Shown here: piece by piece, positions 2,511 through 64,000 of the stretch
How positions within the stretch are numbered: the first letter of the stretch is position 1
Layout of the letters: every line of letters begins with the position of its first letter
Source of the DNA: Ascidiella aspersa
Lineage: Eukaryota
DNA length: 64,000 nucleotides
Reading direction: 5' to 3'
NCBI GenBank assembly: GCA_963924565.1
Contig: OZ004615.1
Coordinates: 992,001-1,056,000, forward strand
Made by a program: the position numbers and the translations under genes
Notes under the pieces: generated by a model
Told to the model about the DNA's origin: nothing
What the model saw: only the letters and a program-made list of their open reading frames with translations
The model's database searches: none

Positions 2511-5080
2511 CTTATATTTGATGTTTAAAAGCCAATTAGGGTTCTATGTTGACTCCTTAAATGAATCGAATAATTTCAATTTAGTCAGTAAAAACATATT
2601 TTGCCGGTTTTCAAAGCCCCTAAAACTGCTGGTAATCCACGAATCGTTTTTAAATAACTCTAACAATTCAAAAAATTACCCCTCCAAAGTCTACACTATC
2701 GGTTCAAATGTGAAAAATTAATGGTAACCCTTATCTTTTGAAAAATATATACATAGGAAAATGAATAATTCGACACTATTACTAAAACAAAATTTAAATA
2801 AAAAAGGTTTTTGTTAGTTCTAAATTTTAAACCTTTTAAACGCGATCTGCATATAATTAACATAAAAAACCGCCTCACGTTCATTTGCCACACATTCGAA
2901 CTGGCCGCCTGTGCTTTTCTACCTTTTGTAAGATTCCTAATACGCCACATCACACACGCACTTCAGGCAAAGTCTCCAATAACTTTGTTGAGTTATTCGT
3001 ATTGATTTGAAATATGGGAACAATTAACCCATTAAAAATATTTCATAAAAAATCTCTGGTATACGATTAAGATGGTGCTGATTTTTCTTTTTAAATTTCA
3101 ACCAAAAATCACAACCAAATAAAAATCAAATCGCAAACTTTGTCCTCCTACCTTTTCTAAGCTTTCTAGGGCATTGCATCAGACACTATGACGTCACAAC
3201 TTGTCCTCAATCTTGGATCGTGATTCCAAAAAGCTACATTTCCTACGTTTGTGCGTCATAATTAAAACGAACGTTAACTTTTGACCTCAAATCAGGAATC
3301 TTGAGCCAAGTCACGGTTATCGATGATTCTGCTCTTTTTCACATGTTTGTTTCAGTGTTGTAATAATTTAATTTAACTTAATGCACTGTTTTCAAATGAC
3401 TTCACTTGATTTAATCTTTCGGGAAAATGACTTTGGCTGAAATTAAGGGTTTACATTCACATTTTTTCGTAAAATTGGGTTATTTAACGTAATTTTTGCA
3501 CATAAACCTTTTTCTTGCTATATATTGCGTTTTTGGTATTTTTTAGTTAAGGTATTGCTCATAATCGGAGGAGTTTAACCTATTTGAAAATCTTAACGCC
3601 ACTTTCCTATATAAAGCAAAAAGTTAATGCTCGTTTAATGTTTGTATATATTTTTACAGTGTTGTATAAAAACAAAATATAGAGAACACGAAGAAATATT
3701 TTGATAAGAAAAGAAAATCACATGTGTGTGTAACATTTGTACGTTAAGATACAACGCTTTACGGGGTTTAAGATAATATGAAACATTATATCTTTGGACA
3801 GCGAACAACTCACAATGAAAAAACAAGTTACAGTTAAATAAAAATTCAGTAAAAATAAAGCAGAATCAGCTGGCAGATAAACAAATGTTGTTTTTGCAAT
3901 ATTTTTTTTAAATTTAATGCTTTAGTTTTTTGTTGGTACATTTAGGTGAAAATGACAAAAACCCGATATGTATTGTCAAATTTGGAAAAAAAAATTAGTC
4001 ATTGGAACTTAATCTAAATGAAAGTCGTAATATAGTGGAATAAGGGGTAAGCGAGTTTAACCAGTAGTTTTAATAAACAGTACATTTAAAAAAAAAAAAT
4101 TGACACAATTAGGCGGTAAAGTTGTTTTAGATCGGCGAAATCACGAAGAACACTAAATAAACATAAATAAACACGAATTACTTGTTGCACTGACAAGCAG
4201 TAATAAAGCAAAAATCTAATAACACTAGTTGGTGTAAAGAATTACAAAATTTAAACCAATGGCTTTTTTTCCAAACAGAAAAATTGTTTTACAATAAACT
4301 GGTATAACTAGAATAAAAATGAATTGCCAAATTTGTCTCAAGTTCTGTTCATGTTAAGATTGTTGGGGATGAAAAACCATTGGGTTAAGTTGTGAAGCAA
4401 TAAATGGCAGCCTCGGTAAAGCTTTAAACGTTTTGAAACTTTTAATCAATAGTTACATAGGAAGTTATTTGATGAAGGTGAACTTCAAAGTTTAAAAATC
4501 ATAATGAAACACTGGGGCAGGTGTTTAAATATAGCAGTGATTCTCAAACTGTGTACCTCTGTACAATGGTGCGCTTAAGGAGTAACTTTTTTGTTATTTT
4601 GTAAAATAACCTATTTTTATTGCGAATAGGAACGGCAAGCATACGAGTTTGCGAGACTTGAATGCACAATATCGATTGAAAAAACTGATAATGTCGAGGC
4701 ATTTACCTGTTACCTTGTCTTTATTAAAGTGTATTAACAACTTATAAAATTGTATTGCAAAAAGTGTGGCGCATGTTTGTTGAATATATCGCTGTGCCTC
4801 GGGCTAAACACAATAAAAAACACTTTTTAATTAAACCAACTAAACATCAGAAAACTGATCATATCAAGGCATTTCCTGTGATGTATTAGAAGCAATTGCC
4901 AAGTCGTAAAGTCATTGTTTCGTAAATAAGTGTGTCGCGTATATTTTTTAAAAATATGTCTTGGTCTAAACAAAATTAGAAACACTGGTTTTAATTGAAT
5001 TTCATATTTAAACATCATCAGTTCCTTAATTCGAATGTATTTATGAGCAAATAAAGCGTTTAGCGTTTGGAACAATGGGA

Positions 5081-5548
5081 TTACGAATCCTCCACAACCC
5101 AAAGATCTGAAGTGTTCTCATCATGATCCGAGAGGACAACTTTGGTCCCATCCACGCTCACAGATCTCTCGGGAACATCATCATTATAGAAGACAGAAGG
5201 AACCAAGAAACCTCCGTCCCTTTGATGGGAGTAAACGTGGAAGAAGATCCTCGGGTCATCCGCGTCCTCATCAACATCCACCGACTCCGGATCTGGAAGG
5301 GAGGACTTGATGAGGCGCAATCTCCCTCCCTCTGTTCCGTGAACAAAGAGACGCCCGCGCTCCGCGTCCTTGGCAAAAATGAATGCGGGGATTCCCCTCT
5401 TGATCGAGCTAAGGCGCCAGTATTTCCAAGGGGATTCCCCGGTGACCAAGCGCAGCTTTGACTCTCCCCCCCAACCGTCGGAACCGTTCCCGTGGAGAAG
5501 GATGTTGCATTCGGCCTCACTGGACACCCCCGACTCGCACGAGCTCGC
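5081..5548 (-). CDS. Last coding exon of an IL-1/beta-trefoil-like protein gene
   Basis: Acceptor ttatatttccAG|GCG (AG at 5550-5549) is phase 0 and in frame with ORF 5081..5527. Reads ASSCESGVSSEAECNILL...DPRIFFHVYS...DLWVVEDS* (155 aa). The exon is clearly GC-richer than its flanks. Family assignment is by motif resemblance only. Confidence 0.75.
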   Translation of the reverse strand, partial: ASSCESGVSSEAECNILLHGNGSDGWGGESKLRLVTGESPWKYWRLSSIKRGIPAFIFAKDAERGRLFVHGTEGGRLRLIKSSLPDPESVDVDEDADDPRIFFHVYSHQRDGGFLVPSVFYNDDVPERSVSVDGTKVVLSDHDENTSDLWVVEDS

Positions 5549-5662
5549 CTGGAAATATAAGTTGTTTAAAGTTTGTCATTTAAAGTTATGGTACACCAAG
5601 AGCTATCGCAGACTCAACGAATTTGCAAGACAATGGTGCAAAGACAGGGTAGAAAAACAATT

Positions 5663-5737
5663 AGCTTGTAGTGAGGTTCGAACTCACGACCTCGGTCATA
5701 CCGGGACCGTCGATCTACAAACCGAGCTACACAGGCT
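5663..5737 (-). pseudogene. tRNA-like element (Thr-like GGT loop) or tRNA-derived SINE head inside the intron
   Basis: Minus strand AGCCTGTGTAGCTCGGTTTGTAGA...CGGTC-CCGGTAT-GACCG...GAGTTCGAACCTCACTACAAGCT has an A box, a B box, a cloverleaf and a T5 downstream. C33 and acceptor mismatches are non-canonical. Confidence 0.6.
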
Positions 5738-6171
5738 CAGAGGGGAGCAAGTCGAGAAACAACCATACGCCAATGCTTACTAGAAACGTAAGCCGTAATG
5801 GTTGGTCAAAAAGCAGCTTCAGAAAGGCTAAATCTCAGTTGTTGACACACATATGTGTGTGCATCTTTCATTGAATTGAAGTTAATTGCTATGAATTGTC
5901 AGACACAACAAAAATATTATGTTGTTGTTGTCGTTGTTCCTACCATTTGCATGACTGTAGTGTATACACTAGTGTTGGAAACAAGTTTTAATTGGATTTT
6001 AAATATTTACTCATTATTTACTAAACAGTCAATTTTCATCTACATTAATCGCCTATTGAAAATTTCTTATCTACAAAATTAAAAAGTGAAGCTGTTTTTT
6101 TTTCGTATTGTCAACCGATGAGACCTACATCCACATCCACACTTAAAATATCGGGTATCTGTCATGGTTAC

Positions 6172-6444
6172 CTGGCAACATGGGACGGTCTCCTCAACCG
6201 CGCAGCTGAAGGTCGATCCCTGGGACATATCTTCCTCCAGAAAGGAACAAAATGCATCCTTGGCTCCATGATCCCGATCCCTGAATCCTCCATAATCTCC
6301 ATCTTTTTCATTTGATGAGGATGAAGATTGAATGCTCATCGCCAAAGAGCAACTGCATAAGGAAATCTGCCTCCTTACGTTGTTATCTTCCTTACTCAAG
6401 GATTCCTGCATCTTTGGAAGATCAGGACTTTTGGAGTCGTTCAT
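6172..6444 (-). CDS. Upstream coding exon of the same gene (acidic/Ser-rich pro-domain-like region)
   Basis: ATG at 6444 (MNDSKS...). Donor CAG|GTAACC at 6172/6171 is phase 0 and joins in frame to 5548. The frame stays open up to a possible acceptor tttatcAG| at 6583, so the exon may start at 6582 with further upstream exons. Confidence 0.7.
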
Positions 6445-9004
6445 TCTTCTTTCAAATGGGGAGGGGTTTGGGGCTGATCTTGTCACTAGCGTCTCACAAA
6501 CGACGCGCGCTGCAAACAATGGTCGATTGTTTAAATCACCATAGAACAATGGCTGTATTCTTTTATTGATTTCTACTTTGACCTGATAAACACGGTTGTG
6601 CCAAAGTTTGTCAAGATTTCAATATTTTTTTCTTTCTATAGTTTCACCTGACTACGCTATTTAGAATTAGACAAATACGGTCATTTACAAAGATTCCTTT
6701 TTTATGAAGGTTACTTTAGGACACAAAAACGAATCTTTAAATAGAGCTTCAAAGGATAAAATTGACCCTATTTTCTCAAGCAAAATGTCTAATAAACATT
6801 TTATATCGAAATTAAAGTTCGTCATTTTATTAAATATAAAGAGATTTACATTTCGCCAAAATGGCATAAAGATCTGCCAAATATAAATTTACTTTATTAT
6901 CTCGAGCAAGTTGCCTATTAAACAATATTATAGTCAGTTTTACGAATTTCTGATAATATCTGATCGGAGCCGATATCAAGTGGTAGTATCGGTATTTGTC
7001 CGATATTTAGGTGATATCGGTGCCAATCCTTAACCACTTAATTTATCGGCTTTTTAGCTATGGTGTGCAATTTGAATATGTTTTTTTTATTACAAAGTTT
7101 GTGCCATTAGCAGGATTATTGCATTTGGCTATAATATAAGTGCGATTGTAGCTTTGATGTCCTTCATTGCTTTGCCTGTGATTTGGTGTTGACAGCTACA
7201 TTACAGCTTTGTTTCAAAGGGCTGCATAATATGTTACTATGATTAAGTGAATTAAGTAATTACAACGAACGCGTTTTAAGGTATGTGTTGCATTTCTATT
7301 CGAGTCTCAAAGAAGACTTTACCACTTTAAAAACGTGGGTACTATCATTTCAACGGCAACCGGGTTTTTATTGCTACTCATCCCCTCTGCAAATGTTAGT
7401 CACATCCTTAGCAAATAATGCGTTGTTTAGCTCTAGCGTCCAAATTATTCAGCTCAGGAAATTGTTTACTACGATGTAATTGATTCCGGTACTTTAGCGC
7501 TAATACAGTTACATGATACTACAGCACAAAGTGTGGGAATCGATCCACAAATGGGGCGTCTATTTGGAAACAACGCTAGTAAGGTTTAAATGAGTTTAGG
7601 CGCCGGTATAACGCTACTAGTTGTTGACATTACACAGTGTTAAATAGAAGAATACTGTTATCACATCGGGCAATTAAAACTGCTTGAAAACATCCAAGCC
7701 ATGTTAACTTTTATGGTCGAATCGCCTACACTTAAAATTCCTAAGTTTGGTATTCCTATAGGGTTTCATTAAAATTAAAAGGTTGTACGAGAGAATGTAT
7801 AGGTTTGCGTGGTAATTTTTTCTATGTTTGTAACGCTTTTGTCCAACAGAGGCTTAAGAAAAGTGCCGAAACATACATGGAGAATATTTACTTTAACCGT
7901 TTGATTTATTCATTTTAATCTAAAACCTTGTGTTTTTCGAACAAAATTGTTGAAAAAATTCTGGCCAACATTGTATATAAAATTAGATATGTACATAGAA
8001 ATTAAAATACTTTGGTACACTATGCACAAGTTCGTATCGAAACGTCTTAATCACGATTATGTTAATCTACTCGACCTTTTTTGAGTTTGAAATTAAAATG
8101 GCCCTGGCAGTTATTTTTTATGTGTTTTGACGTGGTCGCTTCTTTCAGAGTCAACAATCGACTATACATGGGCTTTTTGTAATTTTGAATGGGGTAATTT
8201 GACGACTAAAGGCTAAAACTTTCCCAAATGCAAAGCGTGCAGTGAGGCAGTGTTTGGCAGGCTAGCAGCATTACACAGAACATTACGTTTTTAACTCATG
8301 CTTTAAAGCCTTTCAGTAATTAACCACACAAAAATAACTTCAACAAAAAACGGATGAATATCATTTAACTTTAATTCCTGATTCTTGAACCCCGGAAATT
8401 AAATTTGTTCTAGGCGGCTTATTTTGCTTTTGTTGTAAATTTTATTTAATAAAAATTGCTACATTCTAAACCTTGTTTTTTATTTGAACTTGAACTTGAC
8501 TGATAGCATAAAAATTCTATTAGGCCCAAAACCACATTTCGACAGGCTTCTGGGATCTCTCAAAGTTATACACAAAGTTATGCCCAAACCATAACACGAC
8601 TAATCTATGCAACTGTTTTCAATCATACCTAAAACCACAGTTCTACAGGTCTCTGGATTATCCTAAGGTTATACACAATGTTAGACAACACAAAGCATAA
8701 CACGTTCACACAACTGCTAAAAATATCATTATCCCTGAGAAACTGAAATATGCCGTTGCACAAAGTAGCATTTAAATTAGAACTACAGTTACAACACATA
8801 GGCAATTGGCAAACTAGATTACAATTAGATCACGGGAAGAAACTCGCAAACCAGATTAGAAATCCAAACAACTACATGTTACTTGAACTAATAAATCTAC
8901 ATCTTAACCTGTTGTACGATCAACAAGAGTTATTTAGTTGTTCAATTCTGTCAACATTTACATGCAAACTGCTGCAATAGCAAGCGTTCTGTTGCTAAAC
9001 CAGT

Positions 9005-61245: not shown

Positions 61246-63004
61246 TGTTAAACCGTACCTTTGCAAGCAGGTTGCATACTTCATGCACAGCCATGTGTAT
61301 CACGGGTCAAGTCAGTTCTCACTTTTAGCGCCACATTTAGAGGCCGACTTTTTGGCTTTTTTGACCTTTTTTGGCCAAGTCGGCCGAAATGTTTTTAAAA
61401 TATCCCTCTGCAAGCTAAGATTGTCCGATACGTAATTTCCGATCCGGTAATGTCGGACAACGTTATCTGGGTTGTCTAGTTGGACTCGATTGTGTAAAGT
61501 TCGGCTAAAAAAAGGTCTTAAATTTGGTGCCGGCTTTTATTTAAACGGCCTGAAAACCTGGCCAACTTAAACCTCGCCAAAAATGCGATTTCTTTGCTTT
61601 GTGGAACCGCTTATTTGCATATATCTTGTTCTGCAGAGTTTTCTGGTTTTATTTGGCAACCGCATGATTTCAGAAAGTGTGTGCTCAGCGTATATATTAG
61701 AAAAATGGGAACGATTTTTTTTGAAAAAAAAGACAAACAAGAACACTTTTTGTGATTAATTTTGTAAATGTAAATTGTAGAGCTGTAACTTTAATAGCAA
61801 GGTTGTGATTGTTGGAAAGGACCCTAGACTATTATTTGAAATTGGAAAAATCCTGTACAACTAACTGTATTTAGTGCTTTTTTTAAAAGTAGGAAGGTAA
61901 TAATGAGAGTATGCGAGTATATAAAATTTTGACTAGGCTAAATGATTTTCGAAGGGTATTCGGGTATATATTGGAGGATATATAAGTTCATGATTTAGCA
62001 AAAGTAGCAATACTTCATCGTCTGGGATTGTCATTTCTTGTTGGATCCGCCCAAAACGTCCTCCTATCCCCCAAACATTGCACGAACCCCCCAAATATCT
62101 TTCACCCGCTGTAGTTGCTATTCATCATAGTATAGCTTTATTTGTGCGTTGCATAATTGCGCCCGTCGTACATTATGCAACTAGCTGCTGTTAACTTAAA
62201 ACAACTAACTCTAAAGCCTATAGCAGGTGTGCCTTGCTTTATCTTAAACCCGCTGTAGTTATAAATAAACTTTGCATGCCCCTAAAGTGCTTTTAACGTA
62301 GTTTTCGGCATTTACTGCATCTCTAGCAATATTTATATCTACTAGCAACGCATTTGTTTAACTTATTTTCCCTTTAACAATGTAACACAGACCCGAAAGA
62401 GAACTTTCGACTATTTGGTGAGAAAACAAGTAATTACTGAAGTCCTTCTTACAATCTGTGTGATTCTAATTCATTGTTTTGTGTTTTCTTTTCTTGTCCT
62501 TTCCCAATTTTTTCCAACTTGTCCCCTCTTTGTGCTTTCCCTTCTTAATAAAAAAATTAAAAACATTTAACACTATAACTCAACAAATTTGCGTCTAACT
62601 TTTTCACCTTTATCGTACATTTGTTAAAAATGAAAACAAATTAATTATTTCCGATGTAATTGTCTTGAATGTCATTTCATTTGCATTTCGCTTTCATCAT
62701 AACTCGAAACATGCTTTGCATATTCGGGTATTCCCCATAATTTCAAATAACACCAACTGACAAATAATTAAAAAAATCTTTCCTTTTTCAATTCGCTTGC
62801 TTTTGCTGCTTCTGCACCCCCAAAAACCCATTTTACCCCCCTACCGCTTGGTGATGCATGCCCCTGCTGCTGCTGACGTAACAATGGAAAAAAACAATCG
62901 AACGAAAAGTAGACGGCTCACCCCTGGTTACCGACCCCTCAACCCTCCCCCCAGGTCCAGAAGGTGGGGGGTTTGTGCCCCCCCGGGCCGATTGTTACGT
63001 GGAG

Positions 63005-63215
63005 GTTTGTCTGATGGAGTACAAGCGATCAGTGGACAGCGATTCCCCGGTCCATGTTCGATGCCACGCTCTCAGTCGCTTAGAGCTTTGCATGAAGTCG
63101 TCTGTGCCCGAATACTGCGCCGACATCGACAGCCGCTACATTTTAATTGACGGAAAGCGAGCTCAGTCGGTGGCGGCTTTTGCCTGCGCCGATGCAGCCG
63201 CGTCATCAGGTCATT
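63005..63215 (+). ncRNA. Putative structured RNA unit
   Basis: CTGATGG/TCATCAG closing stem; AAGCGAT/GTCGCTT; AGCCGCTA/TGGCGGCT. Confidence 0.45.
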
Positions 63216-64000
63216 TGCACGCACGACACACTCGATGTTGTACCTGTGTGTGTGTTTTTGGGGATTTTCTTAGTTTTTAAAATCCAAGTTTTGAATTTTT
63301 TGTACAAAACTGCTGTTTTTTTAATTTTTTTTATTTTGGTGCTAAATTTAGCAACTCTTTTTAGATATATATTTTTTTAACTTGATACTTTTTATATTTT
63401 TTCGGCCTATAGTTCTCACTTAATGTCCGAAATAGCTTCATTTTTTATCTACATTTTTTATATTTGTGTTAGTTATTAGTCTACTTTAAAATTATTTTTG
63501 TTCTTTTTTTTGCTTTTTTAGCCTAGTTTCAAACTTTTTGTCCCAAACAGCTGTTATTTTGTTGTTATTTAGTTGCTTGTGTGTGTGCAATTTGTGTGCT
63601 GCATCCATTAGCGACTGCAAAGTCGTTCGTTTGCCTTTTCAATTTGAACCAAAACACTTGCATGCTGTCCCGCGTGTGACCTCACAATGGGCCGTTGTAA
63701 TTCGTCACAAAGCGCCCTGGTTATCATTCCCACACATATACAGGCTTGTAATCTCCAGTTGTGTTGTCGCAATACGATCTCGCGCTCATCACACCTACAC
63801 ATCCCACCTAAGGCCTCTGTGACTTGATAGGAATGTGGTAAACGCTTTGTTATAAAGCGGAAATCGTTCTCAGGTTACGTCTGGTACCGCTTACCACCGT
63901 CCCCTCCCATGTGTAAGTTATGTGGGAAAATGTAAACCAGGTTATGACTTGGAATGAATATAAAAGCCTATACAGATGTAGTTTGTATTTTCTGGACATT

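Follow-up and report, generated by a model that had tools for sequence, protein, structure and literature searches.

In a 64,000-nucleotide stretch of the genome of the ascidian Ascidiella aspersa (contig OZ004615.1, positions 992,001 to 1,056,000; hereafter the window), a spliced gene on the minus strand encodes a protein of 246 amino acids (aa) that belongs to an unnamed family of predicted beta-trefoil proteins with two members in this ascidian. With slightly better than even confidence, we read this protein as a divergent, PDZ-less member of the interleukin-1 (IL-1) superfamily and as a probable alarmin-like mediator. It is the best candidate found here for a tunicate IL-1 that a recent survey missed. 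The features of the gene, in window coordinates and placed largely with a 1644-nucleotide contig of the public run X3 (run type not on record), are the following:

6445 to 6509, minus strand: 5' part of the second exon, with the acceptor AG at 6511-6510 (X3 contig piece starting at 6511, and sequence)
6172 to 6444, minus strand: coding exon of the 91-aa, Ser-rich and moderately acidic N-terminal region, a putative pro-region (X3 contig, composition)
6361 to 6375, minus strand: RRQIS, a basic kinase-type motif (sequence)
5549 to 6171, minus strand: phase-0 GT-AG intron separating the pro-region from the domain (gene model, X3 contig)
5081 to 5548, minus strand: single coding exon of the 155-aa C-terminal domain, a predicted beta-trefoil, with the stop codon (X3 contig; fold judged from the homolog P0003)
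5243 to 5257, minus strand: DPRIF, residues 189-193, an instance of the motif D-x-R-[FILV]-[FW] and the presumed opening of strand 8 (family comparison)
5195 to 5212, minus strand: GFLVPS, the presumed strand 9, in place of the absent [F/L]ES motif (family comparison)
4700 to 5080, minus strand: 3' untranslated region with candidate polyA signals; the X3 contig extends 370 unplaced bases past 4700 (X3 contig, sequence)

The reading frame runs from the ATG at 6444 to the stop codon at 5083-5081, and the phase-0 intron has its donor GT after 6172 and its acceptor AG before 5548. The X3 contig consists of two gap-free pieces joined at this 6172/5548 splice (window 6511-6171, record 86-426; window 5547-4700, record 427-1274), with the joint ambiguous by one base. 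As the exon, used as a query against the genome assembly (308 Mb, 75 contigs; the window lies on contig C9), returned this copy only, we infer that RNA is the most plausible source of the spliced contig. It carries 85 additional unplaced 5' bases, so that a further exon must lie upstream. Between the exon start at 6509 and the ATG the frame is open; 6445-6509 is probably untranslated, with room left for a coding extension. Altogether, four runs were compared with the gene locus. The contigs of run X1 are unspliced and cross both splice sites, while the RNA raw-read run X5 (read to 6%, condition not on record) gave a depth of less than 2x over the last exon and none over the preceding one. We conclude that the gene is real and spliced. 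The exact joint in the X3 contig bears out the 246-aa model that a preliminary description, made from the sequence alone, had proposed with the same start codon and the same phase-0 splice.

The sequence motifs quoted in that description are present in the translation. Its characterisation of the N-terminal region as acidic and Ser-rich holds for serine (19%) and only moderately for acidity (D+E 18%, K+R 10%). By hydropathy, the start of this region has no signal-peptide-like character, and a Pfam scan of it gave no match. The segment FCSFLEED, which had been taken as a pro-IL-1 motif, is not conserved in the relatives. The proposed position antisense to a structured array found no support either, as no array overlapping the gene was found; the sole structured element on the gene is a high-copy tRNA-derived repeat resembling a short interspersed element in the intron (about 5650-5870), which ARAGORN called as tRNA-Thr. 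Hairpin matches, 31 in number, are dispersed across the window, and further high-copy repeats lie at 6590-6700 and 6950-7005.

A HMMER search of 1.84 billion representative proteins returned eight matches. Four of these are real homologs, all unnamed, with about 35-46% identity and E values of 1e-15 to 1e-7; the other four (P0005-P0008) are bacterial-type repeat proteins aligned over short stretches and were dropped. In a search of 5.8 billion proteins, the single exon found no relative, a profile found only the same four proteins, and the length range of 439-2000 aa yielded none, the latter being a weak test. Seven loci from a metagenome scan (L002-L008) resolved into three intronless paralogs of one eukaryote, with a ratio of nonsynonymous to synonymous substitution rates of 0.41-0.49 across the domain. 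These homologs lie on separate contigs, which together with their intronless coding regions may point to retroposition, and the metagenome loci showed no convincing synteny with the focal region. Searches of the PDB sequences with single sequences and four profiles gave nothing relevant, and neither the protein sets nor GTDB nor the viral contigs yielded a relative that is named, longer, prokaryotic or viral. Horizontal transfer was considered and rejected: the sole GTDB match is off-frame inside another gene, and the viral contigs gave no match.

With a metagenome paralog as the query, a tandem paralog was revealed downstream, about 11 kb from the focal stop codon and in the same orientation (C9:984,196-986,078, minus strand; L032:2196-4078). 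It encodes 252 aa on three coding exons with two phase-0 introns, one of which lies inside the domain and divides it between two exons. An in-frame stop codon stands 17 codons upstream of its ATG, its N-terminal KFQPY matches the metagenome homologs, and DERIF occupies the D-x-R-[FILV]-[FW] site. All six distinct family members combine a variable N-terminal region of 90-155 aa with a C-terminal domain of about 150 aa, and all end at the last strand of the domain or a few residues before or past it. A kinase-type [RK]Q.S motif occurs in the N-terminal regions of four of the six. Judged by hydropathy only, five members lack a signal-like start; P0002 begins with a hydrophobic stretch (2.05), and its start position is uncertain. 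The observed splice, the trefoil predicted for P0003 and the in-frame stop before the ATG of the paralog support the leaderless precursor with a C-terminal trefoil that had been suggested previously.

The fold itself was assessed from predicted models. AlphaFold models of the window protein were of low confidence (predicted local distance difference test, pLDDT, of 35 and 43), and structure searches with the better one found nothing significant. The ESM Atlas model of the homolog P0003 reached a whole-protein pLDDT of 0.59. For its residues 120-271, the top two feature matches in the Atlas were unnamed clusters (0.95 and 0.94), and the named matches were all trefoil families, namely RicinB_lectin_2, I66, CDtoxinA and AbfB (0.93-0.94). 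The structure matches covered 124-136 residues with template modelling (TM) scores of 0.67-0.74 and were mostly bacterial clusters containing ricin-B or AbfB; a cluster of IL-18 stood in row 9 of 10 (TM 0.67/0.71). A second Atlas query, P0001, gave a poor model with no visible trefoil. From the P0003 model, the C-terminal domain is very probably a beta-trefoil. The fold alone does not name the trefoil family.

The case for IL-1 kinship is built on the architecture of the protein and on a motif at strand 8, which is the main IL-1-specific evidence. In 6/6 members, D-x-R-[FILV]-[FW] stands 54-60 aa before the C-terminus, and in shuffled versions of the focal domain it falls in this zone 0.4% of the time. 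We compared it with the invertebrate IL-1 homologs named IL-1anc, using Table S2 of PMC13736523, in which 57 of 71 invertebrate rows are readable at the place of the motif; all counts were made by eye. The motif occurs in 27 of these 57 rows, immediately ahead of the strand preceding the FES one. It is present in all three amphioxus sequences and in none of the five from cnidarians, and it was seen in none of the 21 vertebrate rows in part 5 of the table, some of which are incomplete. Amphioxus NDGRVFF and the NDPRVFF of two homologs differ at one position, and a proline stands equally far upstream. Inspection by eye also showed R-Q-x-S motifs, similar to the kinase-type motif of the N-terminal region, in the N-termini of several ambulacrarian IL-1anc proteins. 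The ricin-B exons of this genome lack D-x-R-[FILV]-[FW] (0/10) and nearly all contain Q.[WF] (9/10), whereas QxW occurs in none of the six family members. On this sequence comparison, IL-1 is favoured over a lectin or an FGF, although this is not proven.

Several observations weigh against an IL-1 assignment. The motif is short, was chosen post hoc and is not a profile comparison, and for the P0003 model ricin-B-type matches outrank IL-18. IL-1anc is described, in the accessible parts of PMC13736523, as a PDZ domain plus a trefoil with a largely conserved [F/L]ES, its trefoil being split over three to five exons that keep two conserved introns at the centre, and linked to ESD and to GCC2, EIF2A, TRAF3 or an IL-1R. 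In the focal family, Pfam scans of the members found no PDZ in the N-terminal regions (73-120 aa in this comparison), and [FL]ES is absent from 6/6 members, all of which have G[FY][LI]xP instead. The domain occupies one exon in the focal gene and two in the paralog and is intronless in the three metagenome paralogs, so that the conserved IL-1 introns are absent, and there is no ESD linkage, with ESD on contig C3 and the focal gene on C9. Pfam scans matched neither PF00340 (IL-1) nor FGF. The FES-PG-WF signature, given for vertebrate IL-1 in the text available of PMC12108812, is absent, as is the FES of the C-terminal pattern that the preliminary description gave for IL-1 family precursors. The suggested caspase processing likewise lacks support, as no Asp site common to the six pro-regions was found; neither a gasdermin nor a receptor combining immunoglobulin (Ig) and TIR domains was found in exon-wise genome searches. 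Given the missing PDZ and FES, a domain encoded by no more than two exons and an ESD gene located on a different contig, we do not file the gene as IL-1anc. These missing hallmarks weaken the statement that it is IL-1anc more than the statement that it descends from and works like IL-1, since PMC13736523, in the same accessible parts, also includes PDZ-less members and FES variants, for example FQP in two octocoral rows. Of the IL-1/IL-18/FGF-type fold originally suggested, the IL-1 part is favoured, without being proven, by the presence of the strand-8 motif in invertebrate IL-1anc too, and several IL-1anc hallmarks are lacking.

If the protein is an IL-1-type mediator, the gene, one of a tandem pair, would encode a likely leaderless precursor with a predicted C-terminal trefoil domain, made in the cytosol and carrying a variable and possibly phosphoregulated N-terminal region. 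This precursor may be released through cell lysis or some other non-classical route, closer to IL-1alpha or IL-33 than to IL-1beta. Release upon damage would be likelier than a caspase-1/gasdermin route, because neither a gasdermin nor a conserved caspase Asp was found; ascidians have been reported to lack gasdermin (PMC10155998, as far as accessible), and among the IL-1anc proteins tested in PMC13736523, cleavage is given only for SpurIL-1.3 in its accessible parts. The C-terminal domain could then act as an immune mediator released by damage or infection and might signal through a TIR/MyD88-coupled receptor.

The genome contains TLR-like and MyD88-like TIR loci as well as SEFIR loci, all classed by eye. 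Of 29 TIR_2 matches, 23 had their flanks read, four are TLR-like loci and two cluster copies were skipped; the flanks appeared TLR-like, SEFIR, death-domain-TIR or cytosolic, plus one MyD88-like locus. No Ig-transmembrane-TIR receptor was recognised by eye in the TIR flanks; the genome search was exon-wise and covered the best candidates only, so that absence is not shown. An Ig_6 profile search gave nothing above the cut-off. Five TIR_2 genes with death-domain-like upstream exons (by eye) are clustered at C4:7.86-7.92 Mb (L044-L048, L091-L095), an apparent lineage-specific adaptor expansion. Several near-identical TLR-like loci and two long single-exon SEFIR/IL-17R-like genes lie at C5:6.5-7.6 Mb and 15.4 Mb and at C4:2.37 and 13.86 Mb; the TLR-like loci outnumber the two TLRs known in Ciona. 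Upstream of the paralog, at 1.0-4.6 kb, there are three NF-kB-like sites, set against a total of 16 distinct ones across 200 kb of flanks; the focal gene has no such site upstream, and those near the paralog are a lead only. The coding exon itself contains two copies of one NF-kB-like palindromic 10-mer (window 5387-5397 and 5430-5440), and the 64-kb window has only three such sites.

The protein could instead be an R-type trefoil (ricin-B/AbfB-like) that has degenerated and serves in the cytosol as a lectin or protease inhibitor, its IL-1-like motif being convergent. This we consider unlikely, despite the best feature and structure matches of P0003 being clusters of RicinB_lectin_2, AbfB, I66 and CDtoxinA, a single-exon domain that would suit a retro- or transferred gene, and an L-x-x-H...D-x-W end in 5/6 members, the spacing of which we take to resemble an R-type repeat. 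The lack of QxW in all members, the missing ricin-B Pfam match, an internal three-fold repeat undetectable in the sequence and the best score of 0.5 bits for the family profile on the genome's own ricin-B exons argue against such an origin, as does the lack of a bacterial, archaeal or viral relative; the rank of the matches may reflect an Atlas dominated by large bacterial clusters. It is scarcely probable that the domain lacks a trefoil fold altogether: of the four models, both from AlphaFold and one from the Atlas show none, but all three are of low confidence, and the best model, the P0003 domain, matches several trefoil families by features and by structure. As trefoil families are inseparable by fold alone, and leaderless FGFs with N-terminal extensions exist, an orphan leaderless animal trefoil without a role in immunity, FGF-like or of another kind (fascin, MIR), might also be considered; we regard it as very improbable, with no match to FGF, fascin or MIR in Pfam, in the PDB sequences or among the Atlas matches listed.

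A further alternative accepts descent from IL-1 and holds that the protein has ceased to be a receptor ligand and either works inside the cell or nucleus or is an orphan whose receptor was lost. The loss of the FES motif, the basic kinase-type motifs of the N-terminal region and the missing Ig-TIR receptor and gasdermin are in line with this idea. We nevertheless find it distinctly unlikely: the search does not establish that the receptor is absent, an IL1R8-like BLAST match has been reported in Ciona (PMC8226699, as far as accessible), and fast evolution with lineage-specific duplication would fit a cytokine.

The reading as a divergent IL-1-superfamily mediator would be of consequence because tunicates are the sister group of vertebrates, and the family, if IL-1, fills a reported gap in their closest invertebrate relatives. 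Invertebrate IL-1 homologs were first described in 2025-26, and the 2026 survey, in the parts available, gives no IL-1 in three tunicate genomes, using PDZ and F/LES as filters (PMC13736523). As both are absent in the focal family, such a survey would miss the focal gene. IL-1-like activity without a gene has been reported in tunicates, in reports dated 1989-1997 according to the available text of PMC9020223. No description of a tunicate IL-1 gene was found in the full-text literature searched by title or start of abstract, which leaves most subscription journals outside. It may be speculated that the family is the tunicate branch of IL-1 and accounts for the 'IL-1' activity on record since 1989, that a PDZ-less pro-region-plus-trefoil design of the IL-1alpha/beta/IL-18 type was present in the tunicate-vertebrate ancestor, and that the protein needs neither gasdermin nor, possibly, a classical Ig-TIR receptor to work; that all of this holds jointly seems improbable to us. 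With a concrete gene family it can be tested whether IL-1 was retained in tunicates, at what point the PDZ-less design arose, and how a leaderless cytokine exits cells in a lineage reported to lack gasdermin (PMC10155998, in its accessible parts). The six members also provide a profile for finding relatives in Ciona, Styela and Botryllus.

The genome sequence itself also shows an ascidian origin. Mitochondrial COX1 and CYTB carry AGA/AGG at positions which we take to be conserved glycines, as in the ascidian code, and a GH6 domain above the Pfam cut-off is present, a cellulose-synthase trait that among animals belongs to tunicates. Ten neighbouring open reading frames were scanned with Pfam; the neighbours recognised within about 100 kb on each side are a kinase, a PIGO/PIGG gene, sugar transporters and a collagen with an endostatin domain. 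Between two tandem sugar-transporter genes (C9 about 959.5-963.2 kb, L029:7484-L030:1176) lies an element resembling a long-terminal-repeat retrotransposon with long open frames. Within the window, about 55 kb (7000-62000) contain no recognisable long open reading frame and, from about 27 kb on, many short GC-rich islands. A perfect 41-bp tandem repeat of 3.6 copies, the units of which form strong hairpins, occupies 15716-15861, and GC-rich open frames of about 130 aa on the plus strand at 62761-63280, of which one was scanned and had no Pfam match, are probably an exon.

Among known systems, R-type (ricin-B) lectins, AbfB and I66 share the predicted fold, the top Atlas matches and a Trp in the last strand with the focal family, which differs from them by lacking QxW repeats, a three-fold repeat at the sequence level and a Pfam match, and by its pro-region architecture. 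In comparison with IL-1anc (Fontenla-Iglesias et al. 2026, PMC13736523, as far as accessible), the family has no PDZ, has L-x-P-S for [F/L]ES, one to two domain exons instead of three to five and no ESD linkage, and comes from a lineage in which the accessible parts of that study give none. It shares with IL-1anc the C-terminal predicted trefoil, the lack of an evident signal peptide and the tandem duplication, and some IL-1anc members described there also lack PDZ. The nearest are amphioxus BfloIL-1, BlanIL-1 and BbelIL-1, in which D-x-R-[VIF]-F likewise precedes strand 8 and follows a Pro-led loop of similar length. Unlike vertebrate IL-1, the family has no PF00340 match, FES-PG-WF signature or conserved caspase site, and gasdermin was not found in the genome searched. 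Its predicted organisation resembles that of vertebrate IL-1alpha, IL-1beta, IL-18 and IL-33, with a leaderless precursor of about 250 aa, a variable pro-region and a C-terminal trefoil of about 150 aa, and the P0003 model matches the IL-18 cluster at the TM scores given above.

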